A stretch of DNA of 64,000 bases from an uncultured Bacilli bacterium (GCA_934167875.1 CAKPMC010000001.1:13634-77633), one strand, 5' to 3'; positions 10,519-52,425 are shown, counted from the first letter of the stretch. Made by a program: numbers and translations. The notes: a model not told the origin generated them from the sequence alone.

Positions 10519-10566
10519 ATCATCACCACTATTAGCATACGCTACTGGTTATAAAAAAAATGTCGA

Positions 10567-10600
10567 AAAAAAATAAGTACTTGAAATTTGTACTTATTTT
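10567..10600 (-). terminator. Putative rho-independent terminator after proS
   Basis: On the minus strand a hairpin AAATAAGTAC...GTACTTATTT is followed by TTTTTTTT. The stem is AT-rich. Confidence 0.4.
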
Positions 10601-10609
10601 TACACAATT

Positions 10610-12043
10610 TTAATATTGTTTTCCCCAATATACTAAGTGAGTAGCTTTTTCTCCACAAACTAAACATTTACCATCGTGATTATCACCATCAAATGGAATA
10701 CATCTAGAAGTAATTCCAGTCTCTTCTTTTATTTTATCTTCACATTCACGTTTTCCACACCAATAAGCCTTGATAAAGCCATTTTCTTTTTCAGCTAAAG
10801 CTTTCATTTCTTCTAGTGTTAAAACTGATTTAGTCATTTCATCTCTTCTAATTTTTGCACGAATATACATACTATTTTGAATTTCTAATAATAGTTTAAT
10901 TACCTCTTCAACTACACTATCTAATGTAACATGAACTTTTTCTAAAGTGTCACGTCTTACCAAAACACATAAATCATTTTCCAAATCTTTTGGTCCAAAT
11001 TCAATACGAACAGGTATTCCTCTCATTTCAGCTTCAGCAAATCTAAAGCCAGGAGATTTTTCACTATCATCAACTTCACAAGTAATACCAGCAAGTTTTA
11101 AGCTTTTAGCTATCTCATAACTTTTATCTAATACTTCAGTATTATTTTTACCAATTGGAATAATAGATACTTTAATAGGTGCGATATTAGGAGGAAGAAC
11201 TAATCCATGATCATCACTATGAGTCATAATCATTGCTCCAATAATACGTGTTGTCATTCCCCAAGAAGTTTGAAACATATATTTTTCAGTATTATCCTTA
11301 TCCATAAATTTCATATTAAAAGCTCTAGCAAACCCATCACCAAAATAATGACTAGTACCAGATTGTAACGCAACACCATTATACATTAAAGCTTCAATAG
11401 TATATGTAGCTTCAGCTCCGGCAAATCTTTCTTTTTCTGTTTTTTCACCCTTTATAACTGGTATAGCTAGTACTTCTTCACAAAAATCAGCATATATATT
11501 TAACATTTTTAAAGTTTCTTCTTTAGCTTCTTCACTAGTAGCATGGACAGTATGACCCTCTTGCCATAAAAATTCTCTACTTCTTAAAAAAGGACGTGTT
11601 GTTTTTTCCCAACGTACAACACTACACCATTGATTATATAGTTTAGGTAAATCACGATAACTTTTAACTATATTGGCATAATGTTCACAAAATAAAGTTT
11701 CACTAGTAGGTCTTACACAAAGTCTTTCTGGTAATTCCTCATTACCTCCTTGAGTTACCCAAGCAACTTCTGGAGCAAAACCTTCAACATGATCTTTTTC
11801 CTTTTGTAGTAAAGATTCAGGTATAAACATTGGCATATAAACATTTTGATGACCTGTTTCTTTAAATTTTTTATCAAGCTCTTTCTGAATATTTTCCCAA
11901 ATAGCAAAACCATAAGGTCTAATAATCATACAGCCTTTAACACTAGAATAGTCAATTAATTCTGCTTTTTTACATACATCAGTATACCATTTAGCAAAAT
12001 CAACATCACGGCTAGTTATTTCTTTTAATTCTTTTTGATCCAT
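10610..12043 (-). CDS. proS: Prolyl-tRNA synthetase, archaeal/eukaryotic-type class II
   Basis: About 478 aa ending in the conserved C-terminal Tyr (YWGKQY) with class II motifs. AGGAAGTGAG precedes the ATG at 12043. Confidence 0.93.
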
Positions 12044-38762: not shown

Positions 38763-40799
38763 CTACAAAGTAATCAATAATTTATAAACAATCGTCGTTA
38801 TTAAACACATAGTAATTCCACAAATAGTAGGTATAATCATTGCATAAATCATCCATTTAATACTATTAGTTTCTTTTTTTATAGTAAGACACGTAGTAGA
38901 ACATGGAAAATGCATTAATGAAAATAAAATGGTGTTAATAGCAGTAAGTATTGTCCAACCATTATCTATAAATAAAGTTTTAAGTTCTAATATACTATTA
39001 TAATCAGTAATAGTACCAAGTGATAAATAAGACATAATCATAATTGGAATTAGTATTTCATTAGCTGGATATGCAAGAATAAAAGCTGTTATGATAACTC
39101 CATCTAGTCCAATTAACTTTCCAAATGGATCTAAGAAATTATTAATATGCATAAGTATACTAACTCCACTAATATTAATATTAGCAAGTAACCAAATTAT
39201 AGTACCAGCTGGTATAGTAACAATTATCGCTCTACCCAAAACGTGTAAAGTTTTATCAAAAATACTTCTAACTATTACTTTTAATATTTGAGGTTTACGA
39301 TATGGAGGTAATTCTAAAGTAAATGATGAAGGCATACCCTTTAGTAATGTTTTAGATAATAGCCATGATATTAATAATGTCATTCCTACTCCAAGAAGAA
39401 TAAATAATGTAAGTATAACTACTTGGAAAAAGGACATAAATTTACCACTACCAACCATAAATATAGAAATAAGTAAAATAATAGTTGGAAATCTACCATT
39501 ACATGGCACAAAATTATTAGTTAAAATAGCTAGTAATCTTTCTCTTTTAGAATCAATTATTCTAGTTCCAGTAACTCCAACTGCATTACATCCAAAACCC
39601 ATCATCATACAAAGTGCCTGTTTTCCACACGCATTACATTTTTGAAATCCTCTATCTAAATTAAAAGCTATACGTGGTAATACTCCTAAATCTTCTAATA
39701 ATGTAAATAAAGGAAAAAATATAGCCATCGGAGGTAACATTACTGCAACTACCCAAGATAATGTTTTATAAATTCCCCCAACTAATAAATCATTAAGCCA
39801 ACTAGGTAAATGTAACCAACTATTTATACTAACAAAATAATTACTAAGACTAGAAAAAAAATCAAATAATATCTGTGACGGATAATTAGCTCCTGTTATT
39901 GTTAACCAAAAAATAAACATCAATAAAATAATCATAATAGGTATACCTGTTATTCTACTAGTTAATAATCTATCAATTCTTCTACTTCTCTTTTCATAAT
40001 CACAGTTTCCATAACTAATAACATCTTTATTAATTGCTTCTGCCTTATCCATAATTTGACTTACTATATCATCTTTTAAAAGTAAATTATCACTACCTAT
40101 AATTTTATTAATAGTATCATTTTCTTTTAATGAAAAGCCTAAATAATTATCTATTTCCTTATCTAAAAGAAAATCACCCTCTAAAAGCCTAATAGCTAAC
40201 CATCTACTAGATAAATTTTTAATATTTAAAAAAGCTAATTCTGTTTCTAATAGTTTTAACTTTTCCTCTATCTTTTTACTATAACGTACTTTAGTACCAA
40301 TATGTTTAATATTATCAAAATTATCAATAGTATCAAGAAGTTTAGTAATACCCTTCTTCTTTCTAGCTTCTGTTCCAATTACTGGTACACCTAATTTCTT
40401 TTCTAACTTTTCTAAATCAATACAAACTTTCTTTTTTCTAGCTTCATCCATCAAATTACAGCACACAATAACATTAGGGGTTATTTCAAGTATCTGTAAT
40501 ACTAAATTAAGATTTCTCTCTAAACATAAGCTATCACATACAACGATAACCATATCATAATTATCAAAACACAAAAAATTTCTTGTAACTTCTTCTTCAT
40601 CTGAATGTGAAATTAAAGAATAAGTACCTGGTAAATCGATAAGTTCATAAGTATTATCTTTATAAATAAAATTTCCCACTGCCTGACTAACTGTTTTACC
40701 AGGCCAATTACCAGTATGTTGATGCATACCAGTTAAACTATTAAAAATAGTACTCTTACCTACATTAGGATTACCTGCTAACGCAATTCTCTTTTTCAA
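38763..40799 (-). CDS. feoB: Ferrous iron transporter FeoB
   Basis: An N-terminal G-domain (GNPNVGKST) and a C-terminal polytopic membrane domain are present. GGAGGAG precedes the TTG start, which overlaps the feoA stop. Confidence 0.93.
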   Translation of the reverse strand: MKKRIALAGNPNVGKSTIFNSLTGMHQHTGNWPGKTVSQAVGNFIYKDNTYELIDLPGTYSLISHSDEEEVTRNFLCFDNYDMVIVVCDSLCLERNLNLVLQILEITPNVIVCCNLMDEARKKKVCIDLEKLEKKLGVPVIGTEARKKKGITKLLDTIDNFDNIKHIGTKVRYSKKIEEKLKLLETELAFLNIKNLSSRWLAIRLLEGDFLLDKEIDNYLGFSLKENDTINKIIGSDNLLLKDDIVSQIMDKAEAINKDVISYGNCDYEKRSRRIDRLLTSRITGIPIMIILLMFIFWLTITGANYPSQILFDFFSSLSNYFVSINSWLHLPSWLNDLLVGGIYKTLSWVVAVMLPPMAIFFPLFTLLEDLGVLPRIAFNLDRGFQKCNACGKQALCMMMGFGCNAVGVTGTRIIDSKRERLLAILTNNFVPCNGRFPTIILLISIFMVGSGKFMSFFQVVILTLFILLGVGMTLLISWLLSKTLLKGMPSSFTLELPPYRKPQILKVIVRSIFDKTLHVLGRAIIVTIPAGTIIWLLANINISGVSILMHINNFLDPFGKLIGLDGVIITAFILAYPANEILIPIMIMSYLSLGTITDYNSILELKTLFIDNGWTILTAINTILFSLMHFPCSTTCLTIKKETNSIKWMIYAMIIPTICGITMCLITTIVYKLLITL

Positions 40800-41035
40800 T
40801 TTAACTCCTCCACTATAATATTTTTGCTATCATTTTTCCTAATAGCTATTAAACTATTTCTAATTTTATAAGCTATAGGATCATTGAAAGGACTAATTAA
40901 AGTGGCAGTAACTATAGTACCTGGAATCAAACCTATATCAAGAAGTCTTCTACGTATAGAACCAACATTATCTATTTTAATTACTTTAGCACTATTTCCT
41001 ATTTTTAATTTATCTAATGAATATCGTTTTTTCAT
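40796..41035 (-). CDS. feoA: FeoA
   Basis: A 79-aa SH3-like small protein immediately upstream of feoB. AGGAAGGAT precedes the ATG. Confidence 0.85.
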   Translation of the reverse strand: MKKRYSLDKLKIGNSAKVIKIDNVGSIRRRLLDIGLIPGTIVTATLISPFNDPIAYKIRNSLIAIRKNDSKNIIVEELN

Positions 41036-41112
41036 AATATCCTTCCTAACTCTATTTTAATATATGAGTTAAGAATAGATTTGGACAAAAGAAAAAGCTT
41101 CAATATTGAAGC

Positions 41113-41785
41113 TTACTCACTTATTACCATTCCATTTTCATCGAATTTGTAGCCACCTGTAACTTGAGGTTCAGGTGTATTATTAACAGTTTCGGTTTCA
41201 TCATTAATTACAGTACCGTTTTCATCAAATTGGTATTGAGGAATATTTGTAGCTGTAGAATTTTCATCAGTACCATCGCTAATAACTACTCCATTTTCAT
41301 CGAATTTATAATTATTTGTAGTATCTTGAGCAGGTGTACTATTAATAACCTCAGTACCATCATCAATCACAGTACCATTTTTATCGAACTTGTACTGAGA
41401 AGTAGTTGAAGTTTCAGAAACATTATCAACGCCATCACTAATAACAACACCATTCTCATCAAACTTATAATTATTTGTATCTTGAGGTGTAGGATTACTA
41501 TTAACAGTTTCAGTTCCATCACTTATTACGAATCCGTTTTCATCAAATTGATACTTAGGAGTACTAGCAGAATTTTCATTAGTTTCAGTACCATCACTAA
41601 TAACTACACCATTTTCATCGAATTTAAAAATATTAGCTTTATCCTGATTTGTAGCTATTTCAGTACTATATTCATTTTTAAAAGGATTAACAGTCTCTAC
41701 AGGTTCATTACTTACCAAATTTTCTTCAAGACTAGTATTTCCATCAAAAACAACAACTCCATTTTCGTCAAATTTTAAATTTGCC
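41113..41785. repeat. Tandem coding repeats of about 80-90 bp (roughly 8-9 units) inside the 41113-42084 gene
   Basis: Repeated DNA units containing TTCATCGAATTT/TTCATCAAATTG and GTACCATC are visible in this span. The spurious plus-strand ORFs 41164-41409 and 41482-41778 arise from it. Confidence 0.7.
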
Positions 41786-42084
41786 ATAAATGCTTTTCGA
41801 TCATAATCTTTATCAGGTTCTTCTATATTTCTATTTAATGCGTTATTAAATACTTCATATTGATCGTTTTTAAAGCCAAGAAAATCAATATTTTCAATTT
41901 GAACATGATTAAAAGAAATTACCTGTGAAGGTAAAAGTAAACCTTCTGGATAAACACATCCCTTATAATCATACATAGTAACATTTCCATTATATTCAAT
42001 AGAAAAATAGCTAATAACCATTATTTTTTTATTATTGCCTTTCAAAGTACACACAGTACCTATAGGTAAATATTTATTATTCAT
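41113..42084 (-). CDS. DUF4176-like N-terminal domain protein with a C-terminal array of about nine tandem FDENG(V/T)VISDGTE repeats
   Basis: The N-terminal 90 aa (LPIGTVCTLKGNNKKIMVISY...YDYKGCVYPEGLL) resemble DUF4176 proteins found in T7SSb loci. The rest is a visible 25-30-aa repeat (YKFDENGVVISDGTE...). Confidence 0.55.
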   Translation of the reverse strand: MNNKYLPIGTVCTLKGNNKKIMVISYFSIEYNGNVTMYDYKGCVYPEGLLLPSQVISFNHVQIENIDFLGFKNDQYEVFNNALNRNIEEPDKDYDRKAFMANLKFDENGVVVFDGNTSLEENLVSNEPVETVNPFKNEYSTEIATNQDKANIFKFDENGVVISDGTETNENSASTPKYQFDENGFVISDGTETVNSNPTPQDTNNYKFDENGVVISDGVDNVSETSTTSQYKFDKNGTVIDDGTEVINSTPAQDTTNNYKFDENGVVISDGTDENSTATNIPQYQFDENGTVINDETETVNNTPEPQVTGGYKFDENGMVISE

Positions 42085-42149
42085 ATCTAACCTCTCTTTA
42101 TTCTTTTACTAAATTATACAAAAAATATTAATATTTTTCAACACATACT

Positions 42150-42458
42150 TTATATTTTACTAACCCTTTTAGTGATTTCAGTTACTGGTAACACACTAGC
42201 ATATTTTTCTAACTCATCTGATGTTTTAGTAATTATATTTATGCTATTAGTTAAATGGTCTTGTTCATCAATAAGACTATTTTTAGCATTACTTAAATCT
42301 GACTTTATTTGAAGTAATTGTGTTTTATATTTGAAATTACCTGGAATAACAGTAGAATCCATAAGATTAAGTGCTGGAGACAAACTACTAATGCTATCTT
42401 TTAGATTAGGAATGATAGTATTTTGAATCTGTTCTGGATTAAATTCTAATTTAGCCAT
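42150..42458 (-). CDS. Small helical T7SS-associated protein (102 aa)
   Basis: Its start overlaps the upstream stop as TAATG. TGAGGTGAAAG precedes the ATG. Predicted all-helical. Confidence 0.45.
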   Translation of the reverse strand: MAKLEFNPEQIQNTIIPNLKDSISSLSPALNLMDSTVIPGNFKYKTQLLQIKSDLSNAKNSLIDEQDHLTNSINIITKTSDELEKYASVLPVTEITKRVSKI

Positions 42459-42745
42459 TATTCTTTCACCTCATTGATTTTCTGTTCCATGGTATCAGCA
42501 TAATCTAATAAGAACTTGCCATAATTATAAATATTACTTTTTATATTTAAATATTGAAGTTTATCTATTTTAGCAGTCTCTGTAAATAAATTAGCACTAG
42601 CACCAACCCATTCACCAGTAGTAACATTCATATTATTTATGCGAGTAAACATTGTAGTAATAATTTCATTCATTTCTTTTGATAATTCTATTATTTCAGT
42701 ACCACATTCTCTTATTTTAGTTGTATCTATATTTATTTGAGTCAT
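42458..42745 (-). CDS. WXG100 family secreted protein (EsxA-like)
   Basis: At about 95 aa it carries the central WXG motif (TGEWVGASANLF) in a helix-turn-helix-sized protein. AAGAGGTG precedes the ATG (MTQINID). Confidence 0.65.
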   Translation of the reverse strand: MTQINIDTTKIRECGTEIIELSKEMNEIITTMFTRINNMNVTTGEWVGASANLFTETAKIDKLQYLNIKSNIYNYGKFLLDYADTMEQKINEVKE

Positions 42746-42801
42746 AAACACCTCTTATTTTAATAAAAGCTAGTAACAATATGTCCTAGCTTTTATTATC
42801 A

Positions 42802-43296
42802 TTATTTAGTTAAACTAACATTTTTCATTTTATTATTACTTGCAGGTTTGCTAGGTTTAGAAACATTAGGTTTACTAACTGAAGGTTGACTAGGTTTAGA
42901 ATTTGAACTAGGTGTAGGATTACTACTAGAAGAAGAATTTTGATTACTAGCAGCTTGCTGTGCAGCTAATCTAGCAGCTTCTTCCTGAGCCCTACGTTCA
43001 GCTTCTAAACGTTGTTCTTCCTGACTAATAGCATTACTTATATTTCTAATCTTAACTTCAATCTCAGGTAAAATCTGATTAGAAATTAAGTTGCGATCAT
43101 TAACAATAATATTTCTACTATTACTAATAACACCATTATCACCACTATTATCATCAATACTAAAGTATGATTCAATATTAGAACAAACTTCCAATGAATC
43201 TTTACTTTTATCTAAATAATTACAAACCTGTGATAATATATTTTTTAAATTAATATATTGATTTCTTTCATTTCTTAAAGCATTTAAATCTGCCAT
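42802..43296 (-). CDS. Hypothetical T7SS-locus protein with a coiled-coil and a Ser/Pro-rich tail
   Basis: The ORF has an AQEEAARLAAQQAA coiled-coil followed by a SSSSSNPTPSSNSKPSQPS low-complexity C-terminus. Confidence 0.4.
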   Translation of the reverse strand: MADLNALRNERNQYINLKNILSQVCNYLDKSKDSLEVCSNIESYFSIDDNSGDNGVISNSRNIIVNDRNLISNQILPEIEVKIRNISNAISQEEQRLEAERRAQEEAARLAAQQAASNQNSSSSSNPTPSSNSKPSQPSVSKPNVSKPSKPASNNKMKNVSLTK

Positions 43297-43313
43297 AATT
43301 TTAACCTAACAAA

Positions 43314-43763
43314 CTACTTATGTTCAGTATATTTTTCTTTTGAATCAACTGCTGATGCCATATTATCATAATTACTTGCAACACGATTAATATTAGTTTG
43401 ATATGCTTCATAAACATATTGTAACTTATCAGAAAAAGCTAATAAGCCACTAACATAAACTGACCAAGCCTTTCTTACGCCTTCAATATATTTTTTTACC
43501 GCTGCTTGTACTTCATCACTTTTAAAAGCACCATCTGCACCAGCTAATGGATCAATAGCATCAATATTAGATGTAACATTGTCAACATATTGTCTAATAG
43601 CATCCCTCATTGCAGGAATTTTATTAGCATTAATACCAACAACACTATAATCACCTTCAATATAGTTACTTTGAAGTTCATTATCCATACCTCTAGTAAC
43701 ATCAAAATTTCTATCTTTTATTTCATTTCCAGCATTAAAAGCTGCTGCTAAACCCCAAGCCAT
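43314..43763 (-). CDS. Hypothetical T7SS-locus protein (149 aa)
   Basis: The ORF has a strong RBS GAGGAGGAAA and no recognised motif. Confidence 0.45.
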   Translation of the reverse strand: MAWGLAAAFNAGNEIKDRNFDVTRGMDNELQSNYIEGDYSVVGINANKIPAMRDAIRQYVDNVTSNIDAIDPLAGADGAFKSDEVQAAVKKYIEGVRKAWSVYVSGLLAFSDKLQYVYEAYQTNINRVASNYDNMASAVDSKEKYTEHK

Positions 43764-43833
43764 ATATTATTTCCTCCTCACTATAAATCATAATACTAAT
43801 ATTTAAAACCAAAAATATTTTTATTTATAAATT

Positions 43834-44160
43834 TTAACCTTCATAATTATCATATACAATAGAATCAATATTAAAGTAATTATTCATAAGTGTTGTAAGT
43901 TCGGTTTCAAAATTTTTCTTTTGAACATCAATGTTTTTTATTATTTGATTAAGATTTTCTTTAAAATCTTTAATGAAATTATCTCTTGAAACACCTTGCC
44001 AACCATCACTTATAACAGATTCCAAATAAGAATAGCCATCAGTAAGATCACGCCCAGTCCTATTAAAAATCTGATCAGATAGATTATCAATATAACTTTG
44101 CATACCAGCTTTAGATACTCCAATACTAAGATCACCTATGCCTAAATCTTCACCATACAT
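43834..44160 (-). CDS. WXG100-like small protein
   Basis: At 108 aa it carries the central SDGWQGVSRDNF motif. TGGGAGATGA precedes the ATG. Confidence 0.55.
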   Translation of the reverse strand: MYGEDLGIGDLSIGVSKAGMQSYIDNLSDQIFNRTGRDLTDGYSYLESVISDGWQGVSRDNFIKDFKENLNQIIKNIDVQKKNFETELTTLMNNYFNIDSIVYDNYEG

Positions 44161-44488
44161 TTTTATTCATCTCCCATTCTCTACTATTTGCTAAAATATT
44201 ATCAGCAATATTTTCAGCACCAACTTTGTAAGATTGCTTTACTTTAACAAAATCACTTGCATAGCTTAAAATATTTTGATTAATAATTTGATAATATTCT
44301 GCCTGCTTTTTAAAATTACTACAAAAGATTTGATTCACTTCTGAATTAAAATAATTTTTAGAATTATCAACCAAAATTTGAAGTTGATTGAAAATATTAT
44401 TTAACTTATCAGCATATTCAATTATATCTGTAGCCATCCTATCTAAGCCAATTTCATTAACACCACTAACATTATACTGTTCATGCAT
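44150..44488 (-). CDS. Small helical T7SS-associated protein (112 aa), first gene behind the internal promoter
   Basis: The ORF follows a TTGACA-18-TAAAAT promoter, and its stop overlaps the next gene. Confidence 0.45.
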   Translation of the reverse strand: MHEQYNVSGVNEIGLDRMATDIIEYADKLNNIFNQLQILVDNSKNYFNSEVNQIFCSNFKKQAEYYQIINQNILSYASDFVKVKQSYKVGAENIADNILANSREWEMNKNVW

Positions 44489-44527
44489 TATACTATCACC
44501 ATACTATCAAACTTCTATCTTACAATT

Positions 44528-44561
44528 AAATTTTACACATTGTTAAACATAATTGTCAATA
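44528..44561 (-). promoter_or_regulatory. Sigma-A-like promoter (TTGACA-18-TAAAAT) driving the WXG100/small-protein cluster
   Basis: On the minus strand there is a perfect -35 TTGACA (44554-44559), an 18-nt spacer and TAAAAT (44530-44535). It lies between the yukD terminator and the 44488 start. Confidence 0.5.
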
Positions 44562-44565
44562 TATA

Positions 44566-44601
44566 AAAGAAAAAAATGTAAAATTTAATTTTTTTTTACA
44601 T
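44566..44601 (-). terminator. Rho-independent terminator after esaB/yukD
   Basis: On the minus strand a hairpin AUGUAAAA-10-nt loop-UUUUACAU is followed by UUUUUUCUUUU. Confidence 0.55.
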
Positions 44602-44608
44602 TTTTCAA

Positions 44609-44863
44609 CTAAAACAAAACTATTTTACTACCATTTCTAATGTTAGTATCCAAAACTGTTGCATCCATATTATAGGCATTTCCTGTACTAACATCATATA
44701 AATTGGTCTTATTACTAACAGTATAAACACCACCAGTTAGTTCACTAACTGCTTTAGAAAGCAAAATAATTACATTTCCAATCTTTCTATTAATAGGAAG
44801 AAAAACATTATAAGATTCTTCTACTTCTGGAACAATCAACTCTACTAATATTTTATTTTTCAT
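44609..44863 (-). CDS. esaB: EsaB/YukD ubiquitin-like T7SS protein
   Basis: An 84-aa beta-grasp-sized protein (KILVELIVPEVEESYNVFLPINRKIGNVIILL...GSKIVLF). AAGGAAGTGG precedes the ATG, which overlaps the essC 3-prime end by 11 nt. Confidence 0.75.
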   Translation of the reverse strand: MKNKILVELIVPEVEESYNVFLPINRKIGNVIILLSKAVSELTGGVYTVSNKTNLYDVSTGNAYNMDATVLDTNIRNGSKIVLF

Positions 44864-47800
44864 TTTGTTCCACTTCCTTTTCAACTACATGTTTAAATAC
44901 TGTATAATTACCATCATTAATAGCAAAACCCATATAAGGGAAATTTATTTTTCTATCATCCATAGTCAAATTAGGAATATTAAATGCTAACTGACTACCA
45001 ACATCCTCACCTAACCAAATACCATATAAAGAATTAATATTAGATTGATACCATACTTCCAATTGAAGATTTTTATAAGAATCATATGTATCTACTAAAA
45101 TAAAATGAATATTAGTAGCATCACCTATATTTTGAAATAAATGATTTAAAATAGCTTGACCATTCTGTGATAGATATTTTCTTAACATACCAATACCTAA
45201 GAAAACATAATAATAATCATTTCCATTATTTTTACTAGATAAAGCTTCATTATGTATTTGAATTACAGCTTGATCAAAATCTTTTTTATAACATTTAATA
45301 TCATTTTCTTTATCATATGCATTAACAAAATCGCAAATAGAAATATTAGCACCAGCTTTTTTGATTAGTTCTATTATACTAATAACAAAACTCATCCTAT
45401 CATAATTCATACTTCTAGTAACTATAGAATTATAGACAGACATAAAATTATAAGTTATAGGTTGCTTAGTAGCTACATTATATCCAATAGGTATTTTATC
45501 TAAGGTATTATTCTGCTCTAATAGATCTAAAGTAACTACTTTAGGAAGTACTGGTATCTTCCTAGCTCTAGAAGTATAAGCATTATTTAATTGTTTTGAA
45601 ACTTCTCTCATAACATTAGTCATATCTTTACGTGGAGCAAAACTAGCTGTTTGAAATTCATAAGCTGTATCATTCATAGCTATCAAACCTCTACCAAAAA
45701 TCTTAGATGGAAATAATCCTCTTGGTGCATCAACTACTGTCCTATATTCAGTCTCATTTGGTATTTGTAAACATAAACGATTAGCAAAGTTTTGTACCAT
45801 TCTACCTCTAACACCATTAGTTGAAATCGCACTAATAATAAATACTATACCGTATTTAACTCCATCTCTATATAAGTTTTGCACAGCTTCAGATAATTTA
45901 GAAAAGTTTTCCACAAAAATTTCATAACTATTAATCATAGTAACGATAAGAGGTAATTTTTTTCCACTGTTTTGTAGATATTCATTATAACTACCTGCAT
46001 AATCTTTAAATAATTCTTTTCTTCTTTCAATTTCTTCATTAATCATTTCAAAGATATCATAAACTAAATCACTGTTTTCAATAGTAGCCACTTCCCCAAC
46101 ATGAGGAATATTATAAAACATCTTCAATGTCTCACTACCACAATCAATTATATACATATTAACTTCATCTGGAGTATGTTCAGCCATCATAGAGAAAATC
46201 ATTGTAGATAATAAATTTTCTTTACCACTACCAGTCTGTCCATATATTAAAGTATTACCTTTATTAGTTAAATCAACATTTAATATTCCTTGTTCCTGAT
46301 TAGAAGGATTATCATATTCACCAATAACTGGATTTATAACATAAGGAACTGGTTTATAATTATATTTCTTTTTCAAGTTAAATAAATTAATATCACTAGG
46401 TAACGCATCAAGCCATAACTTCTTAGTAACAATATTTTCTCTAGTACTTAAATTATAAATATATTTAACTAAGTTAGTTAACTGTTCACCATAATTAGTA
46501 TCATTATTTTCTTTAACCATATCTTTAATTGTTTTAACTGGATAACCAACATCGTTAACGAAATTAATAGAATCATCTACTTTTTTAATAATTCTATCTG
46601 AAGGAACATATTTAGCCCCACTCCATCCAGATTGTCCAATATCAAAATAATCATTATAACCAACTTGTAAATAAAATCTTCCTGTTTCCTTTATACTAGC
46701 TGCTTCTGGTCTTTTTAACATTTCCATACTATCAGATCTATCTTGAACCTTCAAACAAACTTTAAATTTTGAATTACTCCAAATTTGATCATTTACTACT
46801 CCACTAGGTTTTTGGGTAGCAAGTATCAAGTGAAGTCCTAAACTACGTCCAATACGAGCTGTAGAAATTAATTGTTGCATAAACTCTGGTTGCTGACTTT
46901 TTAATTCTGCAAACTCATCACTAATAATAAATAAATGTGCCATAGGTTCACTAACTGCACCCTCACGATATAATTTTTGATACTTATAAATATCAATAGT
47001 ACCTTCACCTAATTTATCTCTAACCTCATTAAATACTCTTTGTCTTCTCTTAAGTTCTGAATCAATAGATACTAAAGTTCTATTCATTTCAGCTGTATCT
47101 AAGTTAGTAATAGTACCAATTAAATGTGGGATTTTAACTCCTGTTTCTTTATTCTCAAAAGCACCAGCTAAACCACCACCCTTATAATCTATCAAAACAA
47201 ACTGTACTTCATAAGGATGATAATTAACTGCAAGAGATAAAATATAAGTAATTATAAATTCACTTTTTCCACTACCAGTCATACCAGCAATTAAACCATG
47301 TGGACCATGAAATTTCTCATGTAAATCAAGTTTAAACTCTTCACCATTAGCATGTACTCCAACTGGAGTAGCTAAAGATACAACTGGATTATTATTTTGC
47401 CAACGAGATAAGATATTTAATTGTTCTATCTTAGATACTTTCATCATTTCTAAGAAAGCTAATGAATTAGGTAATACCGAAATACCATCTTTAGTAACTA
47501 CTGGTATATTAGCTAACTTATTACTTATTTTTCTCATATCTATATCAAGTGCATATTCATTATTAAATTTAATAATTTCTTTTTGATCTTCTTTTTCAGA
47601 TATAATAGTACCATTCTTTTCTGTTATTTCAATAAATGCATCACATTTACCAGGTAAGTTCTTAATCTTATCACCAATACATAAATAAGAAAATCCATAA
47701 TTAGTAGCTGTCTTTAATAATAAATCAATTATAATAGAATTCTTAGCTAAGTTATAATCATCATTAATAACTAAATAGTAAGGACTATTCTTTTTATAAG

Positions 47801-49484
47801 ATTCTTTTTTAGCTACTTCTTCTTCATCAGCAACAGTATTAGTAGAATCTTCTGTTGATTTACTAGAAGCTTTACGTTTTTTATATTCATCCTCTAAATA
47901 ACTAGAAATTTCACTTATTTCATTCAAATTAGTAGCAAAAAATCTTGTTTCTTTATCATCACTAAAACAGTGTGGTAAATACTTAGCATATTCCCATTTA
48001 TCTTTATTAGCATCATTAGTCATAATAACTATTTTTAGATCAATAGAACTATGTAAGCTAACTAACTGTAGTATTAAACTATTAATATATTCTTGTTCAT
48101 GACTATTATTTATAATGAGTCCTGTTACAGGATTATCTAATAATGAAACTGTAATAGGTATATTATTTAAATTCTTTGCTTGTTCACTAATATTATAAAC
48201 CTGATTAAGTAGATCATCTTCATCAAGTGTAAAATGTCTTTCAGGTGCATCAATAACTATTTTAGATAAACAAGTACCACTACCTAAACGTACTGTCAAA
48301 AAATCATAATCTGTTATTAAACGACTCCAAAACTTAATATTAGTTATTTTATTAGAAGTAGTTAACATTTGATAACATTCAATCGCACTTGGATTATTAT
48401 CTTTTAAAGTTTGTTCTTGCTTCTTTTTTATATCCATTATTTGATTTTGCTTTTCTAATATATAACTAGTATATTTAGATACTCTTAATTTTTCTCTTTT
48501 AGCAGCCTGTTTTTTCTGATACTTGGAAGCAATTCTAGGTATAATCAAACTACCAAATATCATAGTAACACACATAACTATTTGTGGAAGTGAAGACATA
48601 AGCGTTTTACTACCGGTAGAAAGTCCATAAATAACCGTATAACCTGTCATTAAAGAAGAAGCAGCCATAGTTATACTAGAACCAATTGACAAAAATAATG
48701 GCATATCTTCTTTTATTTCTGATTGTGGCACAGGTTCTATTTTTACATATTCTTCTTTTAGCTGATCATCCATTCTAAGCGTATGATAAAAATAATCATT
48801 TTCCTGATATAAGTTCAAATTATTATCAGTATCATTAGAAGTTTGGTAATTAGAATTATCGGTATCTCTTTGATATAAATTAAGTTTTTGAACAGCTACT
48901 AATTCATTAGGATTATTAACATTTAAAAAGCTACCCATCCAAATAATTTTTAAACCATTGATAAATATTATATCTCCAATATTTAAAATCTTACTTTTAA
49001 CTAAATTATTATTAACATATATCCTAGAATTATCTTGTAATGAATTTAGTTTCCAACCAGTTTCATTTTCACCAATAGCTTTTACTATTTCAGCATGATT
49101 TGGTTGAATAAAAGAATCTTTATAACAGATTTCATTATCATTACTACTACCTATTCCTATTCTAGAAAGATTATCAAATGATAAATTATAATTATTAGTA
49201 TCTTTAACAGGTAAAGTATATAAAACTATATTTTTTTCTATTCCTTCAATATTTAAAAAATAATATTGATAATCTTTTAATTCAACGCTAAAAATTTTAG
49301 TATCATTTTCAATAATACTAAAAGTATCATTACTTTTTAAAATCCATTTTCCATTCTCTGCTTCTATATTTAATTGAATTTCAAAATTATCATCAATTAC
49401 TTCATTAATAGAAACAGATTCATCTATCTTTTGAGGTAGTTTAAATACCTTTAAAGTTTCCTTACCAAGTAAATATAACTTCAT
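44853..49484 (-). CDS. essC: EssC (FtsK/SpoIIIE-family T7SSb ATPase, 1543 aa)
   Basis: N-terminal FHA-like repeats, TM segments and three P-loop ATPase domains (GMTGSGKSEF, GQTGSGKENLL) are present. TAGGAGTTGG precedes the ATG. Confidence 0.93.
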   Translation of the reverse strand: MKLYLLGKETLKVFKLPQKIDESVSINEVIDDNFEIQLNIEAENGKWILKSNDTFSIIENDTKIFSVELKDYQYYFLNIEGIEKNIVLYTLPVKDTNNYNLSFDNLSRIGIGSSNDNEICYKDSFIQPNHAEIVKAIGENETGWKLNSLQDNSRIYVNNNLVKSKILNIGDIIFINGLKIIWMGSFLNVNNPNELVAVQKLNLYQRDTDNSNYQTSNDTDNNLNLYQENDYFYHTLRMDDQLKEEYVKIEPVPQSEIKEDMPLFLSIGSSITMAASSLMTGYTVIYGLSTGSKTLMSSLPQIVMCVTMIFGSLIIPRIASKYQKKQAAKREKLRVSKYTSYILEKQNQIMDIKKKQEQTLKDNNPSAIECYQMLTTSNKITNIKFWSRLITDYDFLTVRLGSGTCLSKIVIDAPERHFTLDEDDLLNQVYNISEQAKNLNNIPITVSLLDNPVTGLIINNSHEQEYINSLILQLVSLHSSIDLKIVIMTNDANKDKWEYAKYLPHCFSDDKETRFFATNLNEISEISSYLEDEYKKRKASSKSTEDSTNTVADEEEVAKKESYKKNSPYYLVINDDYNLAKNSIIIDLLLKTATNYGFSYLCIGDKIKNLPGKCDAFIEITEKNGTIISEKEDQKEIIKFNNEYALDIDMRKISNKLANIPVVTKDGISVLPNSLAFLEMMKVSKIEQLNILSRWQNNNPVVSLATPVGVHANGEEFKLDLHEKFHGPHGLIAGMTGSGKSEFIITYILSLAVNYHPYEVQFVLIDYKGGGLAGAFENKETGVKIPHLIGTITNLDTAEMNRTLVSIDSELKRRQRVFNEVRDKLGEGTIDIYKYQKLYREGAVSEPMAHLFIISDEFAELKSQQPEFMQQLISTARIGRSLGLHLILATQKPSGVVNDQIWSNSKFKVCLKVQDRSDSMEMLKRPEAASIKETGRFYLQVGYNDYFDIGQSGWSGAKYVPSDRIIKKVDDSINFVNDVGYPVKTIKDMVKENNDTNYGEQLTNLVKYIYNLSTRENIVTKKLWLDALPSDINLFNLKKKYNYKPVPYVINPVIGEYDNPSNQEQGILNVDLTNKGNTLIYGQTGSGKENLLSTMIFSMMAEHTPDEVNMYIIDCGSETLKMFYNIPHVGEVATIENSDLVYDIFEMINEEIERRKELFKDYAGSYNEYLQNSGKKLPLIVTMINSYEIFVENFSKLSEAVQNLYRDGVKYGIVFIISAISTNGVRGRMVQNFANRLCLQIPNETEYRTVVDAPRGLFPSKIFGRGLIAMNDTAYEFQTASFAPRKDMTNVMREVSKQLNNAYTSRARKIPVLPKVVTLDLLEQNNTLDKIPIGYNVATKQPITYNFMSVYNSIVTRSMNYDRMSFVISIIELIKKAGANISICDFVNAYDKENDIKCYKKDFDQAVIQIHNEALSSKNNGNDYYYVFLGIGMLRKYLSQNGQAILNHLFQNIGDATNIHFILVDTYDSYKNLQLEVWYQSNINSLYGIWLGEDVGSQLAFNIPNLTMDDRKINFPYMGFAINDGNYTVFKHVVEKEVEQNEK

Positions 49485-49555
49485 ATTTCCAACTCCTATT
49501 ATTCTATATAAATAATACCAAAAGTTGGAAATGATTTCAATGTCTTTTCCGGATT

Positions 49556-50470
49556 TTACTTAAAAGTTTTAATAGTTTTAATCATATTATCAAAGTTATT
49601 TTTATTCTTTTTATTTTTAAAGATAAATCTAATCTTTTTTAAGTAAACTGTATTAGCTAATACTTCTATAATTGTTACTAAAATTATTAATAATAATTCT
49701 TCTTCTATCTTATTATTTAAACTAGGAATATAAATATTTCCTTCCTCTATGATATTAGCTTCGTATTTATATAAATCAAGCATTAACTTTCTATTTATTA
49801 TTTTTTCCTCTATAGGTTTAATTTTAATATTAGAGTAATATTTAGAAATATCTAAATAATTATCAGTATAATTACCATCCAAGGTAGATATACCATTTTT
49901 AATTATCTTTTGAATATTTTTAAAACTACATCCTAAGTTAGAAGTATGATAATAAATATATGCAAGTTTAATAAAGGTATAATTCATAGGTATATAATCA
50001 TTATCAAAATATAGTTTAGATTTTAAACAAAAAGGACATAAACATAAATTATTTTTATTTACGCTTTTAATCTTATCAACATAAAAAATATTTAAACAAT
50101 GATAACATATAGCTATATTATTAGTATCTAATTTTTCTCTATATGGTAAATTAGTTTTTAAATTTTTTATTTCATCTAACATTTCTATTAAAGAATAATC
50201 ACTACTAGGAAAACTATTATCAGGTATTTCTAAAAGTTTTTCTATAATAATATTTAAATGGTTATTTTTAATATTTTTAGTTGTTACTATTTTATATAAA
50301 ATAATTAATAATTCTTCTTCTAGTAAATTATTTATTTCTTTATTTTTTAATATTTGGTACTGTTTTTCATAATTTTTAGGCATGGTTATAAAATAATGAA
50401 CATCTTTGTATAAGTCATTTATCTGAATAATTTTAAAGTTTTTATATTTTTCTAACCACCAGTATTTCAT
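49556..50470 (-). CDS. Hypothetical protein (304 aa) with a Cys cluster (CYHC...CLCPFC); extremely AT-rich
   Basis: The ORF has RBS CAGAGGTAAAC. Its composition is noticeably more A/T- and Lys/Asn/Ile-rich than its neighbours. Confidence 0.45.
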   Translation of the reverse strand: MKYWWLEKYKNFKIIQINDLYKDVHYFITMPKNYEKQYQILKNKEINNLLEEELLIILYKIVTTKNIKNNHLNIIIEKLLEIPDNSFPSSDYSLIEMLDEIKNLKTNLPYREKLDTNNIAICYHCLNIFYVDKIKSVNKNNLCLCPFCLKSKLYFDNDYIPMNYTFIKLAYIYYHTSNLGCSFKNIQKIIKNGISTLDGNYTDNYLDISKYYSNIKIKPIEEKIINRKLMLDLYKYEANIIEEGNIYIPSLNNKIEEELLLIILVTIIEVLANTVYLKKIRFIFKNKKNKNNFDNMIKTIKTFK

Positions 50471-50485
50471 GTTTACCTCTGTTTA

Positions 50486-51340
50486 TTAATTTTTTGTAAA
50501 TTCTAATTCTCTATTATTTGTATTCCAAACTAAAATTAATTTGTTTTTACTGTTTTTATCTAATTTAAAAGTAAAACCATTTTTTATTAAATCAATTGTG
50601 TCATCATAGTTTGTTCCATCTTCTTTATATTTATTTTTATAAGTAATTACTTTATAGTAATAGTAATCATCATCACCATATAATGTTTCATCTTCGCCTA
50701 AATCAATGCCTTCATCTACACTATATTTACCATAGTAATAATTATCTATTAAAGTATCACTATTAGCATATAAATAGTAATTACCTTCATTATCTAAATA
50801 AAGTAAATGATCATATTCATCTAACCAATAGCCATGGAGTTTATTTTCATAATATATAGATTCAAAAACACTAAATAAATCATCTTTAAGAGTTGTTTCA
50901 TAACCATTAGAGTATACCATTTTAATATTTCCAACAAATATAAAAATAGAAATCATTAAAGATAATATAAAAGTAATAATAGTAGTAATAAGTGAAAAAA
51001 CGCCAAAATTATGGGAAGTATATTTTAGTCCTACAATAACTAAAATAAGTGAAACAATACTAAAACCTATTCCTATCCAACAGTTCCATATACCAACAGG
51101 TATAGCTAATATTCCTAGTATTAATCCAATTAAACTATTATTATTTCTAGGTGTAGAATTAAGTTCATCTATATTACTTTTAGTATTATTACTATAATTT
51201 TGTTGATAATAATATTGATCCTGATGAGTATCTATTCTAATACTTTTAAATGGATCATCATAAGTATTAATACTATTTCCACAATAAGGGCAAAAATTAG
51301 AATTATCATCTATTATACTATTACATTTTAAACATCTCAT
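50486..51340 (-). CDS. Zinc-ribbon membrane protein (N-terminal double CxxC, two TM helices, C-terminal Tyr/Asp-rich domain)
   Basis: MRCLKCNSIIDDNSNFCPYCG is followed by two hydrophobic helices. AGGAAGTG precedes the ATG at 51340. Confidence 0.5.
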   Translation of the reverse strand: MRCLKCNSIIDDNSNFCPYCGNSINTYDDPFKSIRIDTHQDQYYYQQNYSNNTKSNIDELNSTPRNNNSLIGLILGILAIPVGIWNCWIGIGFSIVSLILVIVGLKYTSHNFGVFSLITTIITFILSLMISIFIFVGNIKMVYSNGYETTLKDDLFSVFESIYYENKLHGYWLDEYDHLLYLDNEGNYYLYANSDTLIDNYYYGKYSVDEGIDLGEDETLYGDDDYYYYKVITYKNKYKEDGTNYDDTIDLIKNGFTFKLDKNSKNKLILVWNTNNRELEFTKN

Positions 51341-51462
51341 ATTATCACTTCCTAATAACATTATAACAAACAAATCATAATTTTTAACAAAATTTAAAGA
51401 TAGTTAACTTGTTTAAAAATAAATATTAAGATATAATTGATTTATTAAAATTGGAGGCAACA

Positions 51463-52425
51463 ATGAAAGTATGTATATTAGGAGCAGGAAGTTATGGTTT
51501 AGCACTAGCTCTAGCTTTTTATAAAAATAATAATGATGTAACAGTTTGGACTAAAGTAGAAAGTGAAAAAGAAGAAATAATTAATTATCGTGAAAATAGA
51601 AAAGCTCTACCTGGTGTTTCTATACCAGAAGAGATAAAAATAACTACTAATTTAAATGATAATTATAAATTAATAGTTATAGCTATACCAATTAACTATT
51701 TTAGAAGTGTATGTGAAGAAATTAAAAATAATATTAATAGTGATACTATCTTATGTATCGCATCTAAGGGTATAGAAAAAGATACTAATTTATTCCCACA
51801 CGAAGTTTTAAATTCAATTATCGAAACTAATAATATAGCTATTTTATCAGGACCAACTTTCGCTATTGATTTAGCTAAAAATAGTCCTAGTGGTCTAGTA
51901 TGTGCTAGTACTTCAATTAATATTTATAAAAGTATTAAAAATTGTTTAGAAAGTAACACTTTAAAAATAACTTATACTAATGACTTAATAGGAACTGAAA
52001 TTTGTGGTTCCATAAAAAATGTAATGGCTATCTTATCAGGATTATTAGAAGGAATAAAGATAACTGAGACAACTAAAGCCCTATTTCTAACAGAAGCACT
52101 TAATGAAACTAGTAATTTTATCGAAACCATGAATGGAAATAAAGAAACTAGCTATACACTAGCTGGACTTGGAGATTTAATATTAACATGTACTAGTAAA
52201 AAAAGTAGAAACTATACACTAGGAACACTAATAGCTACTGAAAATAAAAGTAATATTGATAACTATATACTAAATAATACTGTTGAAGGATATTATACTT
52301 TAATAGCTATTAATCAAATAATTAAAAAGAAAGAAATATCAGTACCTTTAGTTGAATTATTATATAAAATTTTATTTGAGGGACTAGATAAAAAAGAAAT
52401 CTTTAACTTATTAATTAAAAATTAA
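51463..52425 (+). CDS. gpsA: NAD(P)H-dependent glycerol-3-phosphate dehydrogenase
   Basis: A Rossmann GxGxxG motif (ILGAGSYGLALALA) and the GpsA C-terminal domain are present. GGAGG precedes the ATG at 51463. It is the only plus-strand gene in the window. Confidence 0.9.
   Translation: MKVCILGAGSYGLALALAFYKNNNDVTVWTKVESEKEEIINYRENRKALPGVSIPEEIKITTNLNDNYKLIVIAIPINYFRSVCEEIKNNINSDTILCIASKGIEKDTNLFPHEVLNSIIETNNIAILSGPTFAIDLAKNSPSGLVCASTSINIYKSIKNCLESNTLKITYTNDLIGTEICGSIKNVMAILSGLLEGIKITETTKALFLTEALNETSNFIETMNGNKETSYTLAGLGDLILTCTSKKSRNYTLGTLIATENKSNIDNYILNNTVEGYYTLIAINQIIKKKEISVPLVELLYKILFEGLDKKEIFNLLIKN

Follow-up and report, generated by a model that had tools for sequence, protein, structure and literature searches.

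In the T7SSb, the FHA region of EssC contacts the EssB pseudokinase (PMC11217815), and in the described T7SSb loci the genes for EssB, EsaA and EssA cluster with essC (PMC13492133). The subtypes T7SSc to T7SSj are built on a trio of TsxA (WXG100), TsxB (ubiquitin-like) and TsxC (ATPase) (Garrett, Higginson and Palmer 2024, PMC11217815). None of the described subtypes consists of this trio alone; their additional conserved parts include the kinase TsxD, the PPM phosphatase TsxF, the vWA protein TscE, the EspG-like TsxG, TsxH/I/J/K (with TsxI being Ig-rich and TsxJ a DUF6382-FHA protein), the beta-propeller protein TsgL and the AAA+ protein TsfV; T7SSg has been described as 'relatively simple' (PMC11217815). 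As that survey was based on RefSeq genomes, metagenome-assembled genomes of uncultured lineages such as those considered here are probably not covered. Among the accessory proteins, those with DUF4176 act in the cytoplasm as chaperones for LXG toxins (PMC12482557).

A compact island with an EssC-type ATPase and a YukD-like protein

Here, we analyzed a 64,000-nucleotide stretch of DNA (the window) from an uncultured gut member of the Bacilli with about 26% GC. Positions 41113-49484 of the window hold a real and unusually stripped-down type VII secretion island, which encodes an EssC ATPase, a YukD-like protein, six small helical proteins and a protein consisting of DUF4176 plus repeats. All genes are on the minus strand, and the island is located between two conserved backbone genes, feoA and a gene for a 304-aa macrodomain-like protein. 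The features of the island are:

44853-49484, minus strand: 1543-aa motor ATPase of the EssC type, with an FHA region at the N-terminus, two TM segments and P-loop domains of the FtsK/SpoIIIE family
44609-44863, minus strand: 84-aa ubiquitin-fold protein (YukD/EsaB-like, 'TsxB'), start overlapping the essC stop
44530-44606, minus strand: A/T hairpin with T-run and promoter-like element in the 120-bp gap between the yukD-like gene and the cassette
44150-44488, minus strand: 112-aa WXG100-like protein without a WXG motif, 11-nt overlap with the next gene
43834-44160, minus strand: 108-aa WXG100-like protein (DGWQGVS), hypervariable
43314-43763, minus strand: 149-aa helical protein with an LXG/EspC/WXG-clan-like T7SS targeting domain, hypervariable
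42802-43296, minus strand: 164-aa protein of no family, with a helical N-terminal part, an E/R/Q-rich coil and an S/P/N/K-rich tail
42458-42745, minus strand: 95-aa WXG100-like protein (TGEWVGAS), alternative GTG start at 42751
42150-42458, minus strand: 102-aa helical protein of no family, start coupled to the stop of the 95-aa gene
41113-42084, minus strand: 323-aa DUF4176-repeat protein, DUF4176 at residues 1-77 followed by 8 repeats
41095-41114, minus strand: terminator-like hairpin AAGCTTCAATATTGAAGCTT with T-run, closing the island before feoA, aligned with island-less relatives

A sequence-only reading of this DNA had proposed a type VII secretion locus, and EssC, the YukD-like protein and the WXG100-like cassette were indeed found. 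The ATPase, which that reading had called clear, matched Pfam FtsK_SpoIIIE in two stretches (E=4.9e-52) and FHA at residues 111-173 (E=1.6e-6), and in a PDB search its closest solved structure was B. subtilis YukB (9qks, E=3e-118), with EccC at E=3.5e-53. It contains two hydrophobic segments, located around residues 261-320. The motifs of D1 are intact (Walker A GMTGSGKS at residue 734, Walker B LFIISDE at residue 851) and D2 carries GQTGSGKE at residue 1082; a P-loop motif was looked for in D3 and not found. The initial description (three ATPase domains, FHA repeats) is thus broadly correct; Pfam recognizes a single FHA domain and two FtsK stretches. The protein has what type VII systems in general require of their ATPase, namely a membrane-bound FtsK/SpoIIIE-family EssC with several P-loop domains, as well as the N-terminal FHA region that T7SSb requires of EssC, and the assignment of the locus to the EssC (T7SSb-like) lineage of type VII secretion is supported.

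The YukD-like gene, which is translationally coupled to essC, most likely starts with the ATG at 44863. Its product displays the small ubiquitin fold without a C-terminal Gly-Gly that is general to type VII systems, but the protein is less clearly EsaB/YukD than first proposed, since by sequence it has neither a Pfam YukD match nor a PDB match. The A/T hairpin with T-run at 44571-44606 (-8.1 kcal/mol, z=-2.1) had been taken for a terminator before the cassette, but it was not called by a terminator scan. The near-consensus promoter TTGACA-18-TAAAAT is present at 44559-44530 with an 11/12 match, but such promoter-like matches occur at chance level in this AT-rich region (90 found versus 89.8 expected in shuffles). 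The gap 3' of the yukD-like gene is the position of a lipoprotein gene in most related islands (L011/L049/L050/L057).

The small-protein cassette and the DUF4176-repeat protein

The six small genes (112, 108, 149, 164, 97/95 and 102 aa) are present as previously read, including the overlapping stop and start couplings at 44150-44160 and at 42458 and both WXG motifs, TGEWVGAS and DGWQGVS. Judged by weak or sub-threshold scores, three of the six appear WXG100-like and one LXG/EspC-like, while two match no family; the Pfam and TIGRFAM WXG100 scores of the window's small proteins all stay below the curated cut-offs. The 108-aa protein reached E=0.021 for Pfam WXG100, below threshold, and the top PDB profile match of its family is S. 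aureus EsxA (2vs0, E=0.003). The 95-aa protein matched NCBIfam ESAT6_2 (E=4.7e-4), Pfam EspC (0.01) and WXG100 (0.039), with a weak top PDB match to EsxA (3zbh, E=0.19) and a weak Pfam WXG100 match of its L050 homolog. The remaining four proteins had been regarded as helical unknowns, which holds for the 164-aa and the 102-aa protein, but not for the other two. In the family of the 112-aa protein, three of five members match Pfam WXG100 (best E=5.9e-4); its top PDB profile match, 4lws_A, is weak (E=0.074), and it aligns with the 97-aa family in hhalign (E=0.0025). The 149-aa protein carries an apparent LXG/EspC-clan helical domain. For the 164-aa protein no significant match was obtained in Pfam or PDB, and L011, L049, L050 and L056 have homologs of it at the corresponding place in the cassette; the 102-aa protein has no family in Pfam or PDB either, and its gene keeps its own position in L011, L049, L050, L056 and L057.

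The 149-aa protein shows the conserved motifs AFKSEE and LLAFSDKL and the C-terminus KYTE(Q/H)K. Exhaustive HMMER searches yielded 457 cluster representatives of its family, most of which are stand-alone proteins of 150-180 aa. Elsewhere, the same domain forms the N-terminus of 425-465-aa proteins with lipase-type (GHSLAG) or HExxH C-terminal motifs, and three long family members carry such toxin-like motifs. In a family sample of 104, weak matches were obtained to EspC (9/104), LXG (8/104, best 1.2e-4) and WXG100 (8/104). These patterns suggest that the 149-aa protein may work like an LXG-type targeting domain, its scores being below the threshold for LXG membership. The window's own copy has no Pfam match, with neither PF04740 nor a toxin domain, in line with the earlier statement that the locus encodes no large LXG toxin; an immunity gene is likewise absent from the island.

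The last gene of the island encodes a protein with a DUF4176 domain (PF13780, E=3.8e-21; 75 bits versus a cut-off of 25; 72 of 74 profile positions), as in the LXG toxin chaperones ('Ltc'). Its fusion to eight repeats of Y(K/Q)FDENGxVISDG, joined by S/T/N-rich linkers, is atypical. The gene lies within the span covered by the sequence-only reading, which did not mention it.

Absence of EssB, EsaA and EssA from the island and its relatives

As already noted from the sequence, no recognizable EssB, EsaA or EssA is encoded. None of the ten non-EssC proteins of the locus matched these families in Pfam or NCBIfam, and the matches of EssC itself were limited to FtsK, FHA and AAA. Pfam also gave no match in the ORFs checked across the 64-kb window, where a few small ORFs lay outside the scan and several of the scanned ones have no Pfam family. 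Within these bounds, the membrane components required in T7SSb, i.e. the EssB/YukC pseudokinase, EsaA/YueB and EssA/YueC, are missing, and TM proteins at the locus are limited to EssC and a zinc-ribbon neighbor. The same picture emerged from the related islands: by a simple hydropathy scan, no protein of 17 related loci besides EssC has TM segments, a single-TM protein of about 400 aa (EssB/YukC-like) was not found, and the gene tables of L049-L057 list no T7SS membrane-component families.

One explanation would be an ordinary T7SSb with EssB, EsaA and EssA encoded at other sites in the genome. EssC is closest to YukB and keeps the FHA region, which in T7SSb binds EssB (PMC11217815) and therefore argues for an unseen partner, and our view covers 64 kb of the genome. 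However, described T7SSb loci cluster these genes with essC (PMC13492133), whereas here essC, yukD and the cassette move jointly between at least five genomic contexts, never with EssB, EsaA or EssA genes within 10 kb, and the checked parts of the window gave no Pfam match. We therefore regard this explanation as unlikely, although it is the strongest of the alternatives.

The locus had also been suspected to be possibly incomplete. It indeed lacks EssB, EsaA and EssA, but a cassette of practically the same six genes in the same order is found in five diverged relatives (L011, L049, L050, L056 and L057), and this order is kept whichever way the cassette is oriented to essC, and in four further genomic contexts. 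Since many lineages share practically this compact gene set, the island represents a recurrent type and has the look of a subtype, not of a T7SSb in decay. It appears quite improbable that the window copy is non-functional and decaying, as the remnant of a once more complete secretion locus. Most related islands encode a HExxH lipoprotein of 545-578 aa (after yukD in L011, L049, L050 and L057, and also within the L056 island), whose absence from the window island means that this copy could be impaired; the window island has no toxin either, and L035 demonstrates that cargo remnants without EssC do occur at the same site. On the other hand, all 11 ORFs of the island and the two upstream flank genes are intact, EssC is 99.3% identical at the amino acid level between strains and the YukD-like protein 100% identical across contigs, in both cases from independent samples, the D1 Walker motifs are preserved, and the small genes are tightly coupled in a conserved order.

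Upstream of essC, the AT-rich Cys-cluster protein and the zinc-ribbon membrane protein of the sequence-only reading were both confirmed:

49556-50470, minus strand: flanking gene outside the system, 304-aa Cys-cluster protein (Cys304)
50486-51373, minus strand: flanking gene outside the system, zinc-ribbon protein (about 3 TM segments; C-terminal domain rich in Y/D/N)

Cys304, encoded within a stretch of 19-20% GC, consists of an N-terminal helical domain, a CxxC...CxCxxC cluster and a macrodomain-like alpha/beta domain, and the zinc-ribbon protein matches Pfam Zn_Ribbon_1 (E=6e-6). The suggestion that this pair replaces EssB, EsaA or EssA is largely refuted, and we give it very little credence. 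In its favor, both genes lie directly upstream of essC here and in L007/L008, where psd instead of gpsA is found beyond the pair, and, EssC aside, the locus encodes no membrane protein but the zinc-ribbon one. However, Cys304 is confidently modeled as a macrodomain-like soluble protein with a fold predicted to be unrelated to EssB or EsaA. Moreover, it belongs to a conserved backbone, gpsA-(ZnR)-Cys304-feoAB, and directly adjoins feoAB, free of secretion genes and of an intervening EssC, in about 10 related species. The zinc-ribbon gene is missing beside 5 of 10 EssC-bearing loci (L012, L014, L028, L030 and L036), both genes are absent from islands of the same type in at least three other genomic contexts (L049, L050 and L056/L057), and the Cys304 family, with 125 clusters, falls far short of the 820 clusters of the YukD-like family. 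The two proteins are neighbors by synteny and not components.

Finally, an FtsK/SpoIIIE ATPase for DNA translocation or conjugation can be dismissed, as the FtsK-family domains common to DNA pumps and the weak PDB matches to FtsK (E=1.7e-11) and coupling proteins are far outweighed by the match to YukB, by the T7SS hallmarks around it (FHA N-terminus, YukD-fold partner, WXG100-like genes and DUF4176) and by the lack of any relaxase or other conjugation family among the island proteins in Pfam and NCBIfam.

Comparison with described type VII systems

The island shares with T7SSb the EssC/YukB-type ATPase with its N-terminal FHA region, a separate EsaB/YukD-like ubiquitin-fold protein, WXG100-like small proteins, a domain of the DUF4176 chaperone family and, in close relatives, LXG-like toxins with WXG partners. 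It differs in that EssB/YukC, EsaA/YueB and EssA/YueC are absent from the island, the related islands seen and the checked parts of the window, that yukD comes after essC and not before it, that a fixed six-gene helical cassette takes the place of a single esxA heading the locus, and that the YukD-like and most small proteins fall below Pfam family thresholds. With T7SSc-T7SSj it has in common the TsxA/TsxB/TsxC trio and small Lap-like WXG100-related partners encoded beside cargo, and with T7SSf, i and j an ATPase with an FHA region. No domain specific to T7SSc-j was found in the island proteins (Pfam/NCBIfam) or in the gene tables of the related islands. As judged by gene content, the island has none of the subtype-defining extra components of T7SSb-j.

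The streptococcal LXG/Lap/DUF4176 module likewise combines a helical stalk, two small WXG100-like partners and a DUF4176 protein, and other organisms have the 149-aa domain at the N-terminus of proteins whose C-terminal motifs are toxin-like. Unlike in that module, the stalk protein here has no toxin domain and no immunity gene beside it, no Pfam LXG, DUF3130 or DUF3958 match reaches threshold, and DUF4176 is fused to a 245-aa repeat region, compared to a protein of roughly 90 aa.

These features raise the tentative possibility of an unclassified T7SS subtype in which EssC is the sole membrane component, the rest being a ubiquitin-fold protein and six helical proteins, mostly together with the HExxH lipoprotein. 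If true, this would be the smallest natural type VII system, with a strain-specific, exchangeable two-protein 'tip' formed by the 108-aa/149-aa pair.

Possible mechanism and role

We favor, with moderate confidence, the view that the compact island at positions 41113-49484 belongs to the EssC lineage of type VII secretion, is self-contained and works as follows. EssC would serve as membrane channel and motor, and the YukD-like protein may dock on its cytoplasmic domains, by analogy to YukD on YukB and the EccD Ubl domain on EccC. Gene order and analogy suggest both an export signal and a pairing of the small proteins, with WXG100-like members pairing as 112 with 108 aa and 95 with 102 aa. Together with the 149-aa LXG-like stalk, the WXG100-like proteins would form elongated helical complexes to be recognized and exported by EssC, while the DUF4176 domain may hold the cargo in the cytoplasm. 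Relatives carry toxins with a C-terminal Hydrolase_2 domain beside WXG partners; as these load the same machine with cell-wall-hydrolase toxins, the system in general probably serves interbacterial competition or surface interaction in the gut.

A strain-specific gene pair within the cassette

Comparison within the species revealed a further feature:

43300-44200, no strand assigned: hypervariable patch comprising both the 108-aa and the 149-aa gene as well as the 3' end of the 112-aa one

DNA identity of this patch to the same-species locus L047 is 33-76%, compared to 98-100% in most of the flanking sequence. On one shared backbone, at least three alleles of the two genes occur within one species, with 43-52% amino acid identity between the 108-aa alleles and 56-70% between the 149-aa alleles. 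The 108-aa/149-aa pair is a strain-specific, co-varying module, and most likely it is exposed to the cell exterior and subject to diversifying or frequency-dependent selection. Within-species, strain-to-strain gene replacement just downstream of conserved machinery is also a feature of S. aureus essC1-4, Listeria and GBS. In these organisms, the published variation extends to the EssC C-terminus and whole toxin-immunity sets, whereas EssC here is 99.3% identical and the swap is confined to two small helical genes on a patch of roughly 0.9 kb.

Organization and transcription of the locus

Between gpsA and feoA/feoB, the window carries eleven head-to-tail genes on the minus strand, in DNA with a GC content of about 26% throughout the window and of 19-20% at 49-51 kb. 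The genes from essC to the DUF4176-repeat gene (41113-49484) form a compact type VII secretion system (T7SS) island.

Features of the locus
51451-52425, plus strand: gpsA, flanking gene
50486-51373, minus strand: ZnR, zinc-ribbon membrane protein
49556-50470, minus strand: Cys304, 304-aa Cys-cluster protein
44853-49484, minus strand: EssC, T7SS ATPase
44609-44863, minus strand: YukD-like protein, 84 aa; its ATG overlaps the essC stop codon
Between the 84-aa gene and the six small genes: gap of 120 bp
42150-44488, minus strand: cassette of six small genes, in the order 112, 108, 149, 164, 95/97 and 102 aa
41113-42084, minus strand: DUF4176-plus-repeat protein, 323 aa
41095-41114: terminator-like hairpin
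40796-41035: feoA
38763-40799: feoB

The identical locus was found on contigs from several human-gut metagenomes, including Hadza samples. As to insertion signatures, there is no tRNA, the two ends of the island share no clear direct repeats, and none of the island's proteins matched an integrase family in Pfam/NCBIfam.

The sequence-only reading had placed a terminator and a separate promoter ahead of the cassette. The 120-bp gap indeed contains TTGACA-18-TAAAAT (44559-44530) and a hairpin; however, promoter-like matches in this AT-rich region occur at chance level (90 found versus 89.8 expected), and the hairpin consists of A/T only (-8.1 kcal/mol, z=-2.1). Transcription of the cassette on its own is plausible.

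EssC is accompanied by a protein with a YukD fold

The sequence of EssC marks it as a genuine T7SS ATPase. It matches Pfam FtsK_SpoIIIE (E=4.9e-52, two stretches) and FHA (E=1.6e-6), and B. subtilis YukB (9qks) is the best match among solved structures (E=3e-118), compared to E=3.5e-53 for T. curvata EccC and E=1.7e-11 for FtsK in the PDB search. The Walker A and Walker B motifs are intact in domain 1, domain 2 has the motif GQTGSGKE, and no P-loop motif was found in domain 3. Two hydrophobic segments lie at residues ~261-320. The retained FHA region hints at a partner beyond the genes seen.

The 84-aa protein had been called a clear EsaB/YukD, but it is not recognizable as such by sequence: the window protein has no Pfam match (among nine relatives, a single one does, at E=0.041), and a PDB profile search returned no match either. 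Where these had failed, a fold search recognized a YukD fold. The family comprises 820 clusters, of which 120 were listed; these have lengths of 84-91 aa and no Pfam annotation.

ZnR and Cys304 are neighbors of the island

It had also been proposed that ZnR and Cys304 may replace the missing core components EssB, EsaA and EssA. The distribution of both genes argues that they are only neighbors and not parts of the secretion system. A genome-collection scan for Cys304 yielded 36 loci, mostly from MAGs labeled uncultured Bacilli, Bacillales or 'Tenericutes', in which gpsA-(ZnR)-Cys304-feoAB forms a conserved backbone. EssC is encoded downstream of Cys304 in 10 of these loci, while in about 10 others feoAB follows directly and EssC is absent. 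Vice versa, the same island type occurs without either gene: after a PAP2 gene (L049; L numbers denote related loci compared with the window), after TetR/ADH genes (L050), and between secG and eno (L056 and L057). ZnR, which is also missing beside EssC in L012, L014, L028, L030 and L036, is ruled out as a T7SS part by its absence beside many islands. Structure prediction gave a macrodomain-like fold for Cys304 and not that of EssB or EsaA; together with the occurrence of Cys304 without a T7SS, this predicted fold rules out an EssB/EsaA role. Residues 253-272, considered as a transmembrane (TM) anchor, were rejected as one because they are modeled as a helix within the alpha/beta domain (pLDDT 95). 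Members of the Cys304 family (125 clusters, no Pfam match, no names) invariably begin with MKYWWLEKY and contain the Cys cluster CxxC...CxCxxC.

The island recurs in relatives and differs from described T7SS subtypes

The order of the six small genes recurs in L011, L049, L050, L056 and L057, including loci whose cassette is turned around with respect to essC. BLAST matched the cassette positions nearly throughout (23-50% amino acid identity), with not every gene matched in every locus. This conserved order suggests that the six small proteins may be associated with the machine, like EsxA, and are not interchangeable cargo. Most related islands additionally carry a lipoprotein of 545-578 aa, which has a lipobox Cys as well as the motif HExxH. 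Its copies share 24-35% identity and have no Pfam match at threshold. This lipoprotein could belong to T7SSs of this type as an extracellular component; although present in most relatives, it has no trace in the window.

HExxH lipoprotein genes in related islands
L011:6713-8398: directly after yukD
L049:5848-7575: directly after yukD
L050:6873-8510: directly after yukD
L057:10334-12070: directly after yukD
L056:13655-15358: within the island, not directly after yukD

A hydropathy scan of 17 related loci revealed no TM segments in island proteins except EssC, and the gene tables of related islands contain no kinase, phosphatase, vWA, EspG, beta-propeller or AAA+ domains. In L056, a Y1 (IS200-like) transposase gene (10481-10963) lies between yukD and the inverted cassette and may explain the inversion.

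T7SSb requires EssB, EsaA and EssA in addition to EssC and EsaB (PMC13492133). In the B. subtilis core complex, YukB and YukC are bridged by YukD (PMC12637312), and the core structure is still without YueB and YueC (PMC13492133). Ten T7SS subtypes with differing accessory sets are now proposed, of which Garrett, Higginson and Palmer described c-j from RefSeq genomes (PMC11217815). TsxA, TsxB and TsxC are common to c-j, except that T7SSd is without TsxB and the TsxA of T7SSi was not pinpointed; each described subtype has further conserved parts, and even the 'relatively simple' T7SSg encodes a beta-propeller protein, while its ATPase has no FHA (PMC11217815). The island likewise has TsxC, as an FHA-bearing, YukB-like ATPase, and TsxB, with the WXG100-like proteins as its probable TsxA. 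Unlike subtypes c-j, it contains no subtype-specific part in Pfam/NCBIfam searches of its proteins, and it has conserved extras of its own: the six-gene cassette, in most cases the lipoprotein and frequently the DUF4176-repeat protein. Based on the gene content of the loci, we therefore file the island as a variant of type VII secretion apart from T7SSb proper. A literature search on T7SS in Erysipelotrichaceae found nothing.

What an EssC channel requires for working is an open question in the field. An island shared across a lineage and made up of nothing but EssC, a YukD-fold protein and six conserved helical proteins would lend itself to reconstitution as a minimal system found in nature, and would help to tell universal T7SS parts from lineage-specific ones.

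The cassette and the DUF4176-repeat protein

The WXG motifs quoted in the sequence-only reading are present in the 108-aa and 95-aa proteins, whose Pfam/TIGRFAM scores in the window are below threshold. For both family profiles the best PDB match is an EsxA structure (E=0.003 for the 108-aa family, a weak E=0.19 for the 95-aa family). The 112-aa protein has no WXG motif, and three of five family members match Pfam WXG100 (5.9e-4). The 149-aa protein has no Pfam match; its family comprises 457 cluster representatives in an exhaustive HMMER search, mostly of 150-180 aa. In a sample of 104, weak matches to EspC (9), LXG (8) and WXG100 (8) occurred. The 149-aa domain also forms the N-terminus of three long proteins with differing C-termini: one with a lipase-type GHSLAG, one with HExxH and weak M90/ATLF matches, and one with no recognizable domain. 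We read the 149-aa protein as a putative stand-alone targeting/stalk domain of the LXG/EspC clan. In hhalign comparisons, the 149-aa and 102-aa families showed no significant match to WXG families, and PDB profile searches with the 149-, 164- and 102-aa families gave only chance-level helical matches. The 164-aa protein has a helical N-terminus, an E/R/Q coil and an S/P/N/K-rich tail; like the 102-aa protein, it matched nothing in Pfam or PDB profile searches. The family assignments of the small proteins are weak.

In the last island gene, DUF4176 (E=3.8e-21) is fused to a repeat region in which a unit of 25-28 aa with the motif Y(K/Q)FDENGxVISDG occurs eight times, with S/T/N-rich linkers and a sub-threshold Pfam DUF6980 match. 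DUF4176 proteins serve LXG toxins as cytoplasmic chaperones (PMC12482557) and are normally small and stand-alone (e.g. 92 aa in L014); the fusion at 41113-42084 is also kept in L011 and L050.

The 108-aa and 149-aa genes form a hypervariable pair

We compared the window with same-species contigs (L047/L048 and L054/L055). EssC (99.3% amino acid identity), YukD (100%) and the 95/97-aa (98%), 102-aa (98-100%) and DUF4176-repeat (about 97%) proteins are nearly invariant, while the 108-aa and 149-aa proteins reach only 43-52% and 56-70%. Three alleles of these two genes occur among the window and the same-species contigs, and a related entry, P0123, likely represents a fourth. The patch is sharply bounded (window 43300-44200; L047:9552-10342; L054:5364-6196): DNA identity to L047 is 33-76% at about 43300-44200 and 98-100% in most flanking sequence. 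Thus, both genes behave as a co-varying, exchangeable pair in a conserved machine. This pattern suggests that the two proteins may interact with each other, and that the pair may face diversifying or frequency-dependent selection. The pair offers a testable handle on interactions of the system's secreted end in the human gut, the hosts being uncultured low-GC Bacilli from Hadza and other gut metagenomes.

Between strains, essC DNA identity drops to 92-95% only at 48600-49100 (EssC residues ~130-295), the FHA-to-TM region and not the C-terminus; by contrast, the essC variants reported for S. aureus and GBS differ in their C-terminal region.

A possible mode of action

We propose that EssC, identified as a T7SS ATPase, would form channel and motor, with the YukD-fold protein docking on its cytoplasmic part by analogy to YukD-YukB and EccD-Ubl-EccC. 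The WXG100-like proteins may form hairpin dimers, as suggested by the coupling of gene 112 with 108 and of 95 with 102. These dimers could sit along the 149-aa stalk protein, much as Laps decorate LXG domains. At the C-terminus of the 149-aa protein, the conserved KYTE(Q/H)K is a candidate for a tail used in recognition. DUF4176 would keep a partner in the cytoplasm, and the exported helical complex might act at the cell surface or on neighboring cells.

Probable cargo and differing arrangements in other relatives

In the more distant relatives L007, L008, L024, L028 and L030, proteins of 320-445 aa with a helical N-terminus and WXG partners are encoded between Cys304 and essC. They are ruled out as EssB candidates, since they have no predicted TM segment and instead hydrolase domains or WXG100-like partners: two of six tested end in a cell-wall hydrolase domain, and WXG100-like partner genes adjoin several of them. 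By their architecture, they look like LXG-like toxins. Those in L008 (11358-12593) and L024 (11019-11978), of 319-411 aa with a helical N-terminus, a C-terminal Hydrolase_2 domain (SleB-like cell-wall hydrolase), adjoining WXG100-like partners and no Pfam LXG match at E<=0.01, are probable peptidoglycan-targeting T7SS toxins. Such Hydrolase_2 proteins with WXG partners therefore suggest that machines of this lineage carry antibacterial-type cargo.

Some MAGs with a Bacilli-type locus (L022, L033) are labeled 'uncultured Muribaculaceae', and one 'Candidatus Scybalousia' entry stands under Bacteroidales in the NCBI taxonomy; both are likely mislabels or homonyms. In L014 (9663-19530), Cys304 is followed by a yukD-like gene, five small helical genes, the 92-aa DUF4176 gene, a gene for a protein of 1724 aa that has two hydrophobic segments, and an EssC only 36% identical to that of the window. 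This different arrangement may represent another T7SS type occupying the same site. L035 (11045-14086, Cys304 to feoA) has no EssC; it encodes a 144-aa N-terminal piece of the LXG-like toxin of L024/L030/L041, two small proteins and a 649-aa protein. The island at this site, the one that the window's island occupies, thus seems to have decayed or been replaced in L035.
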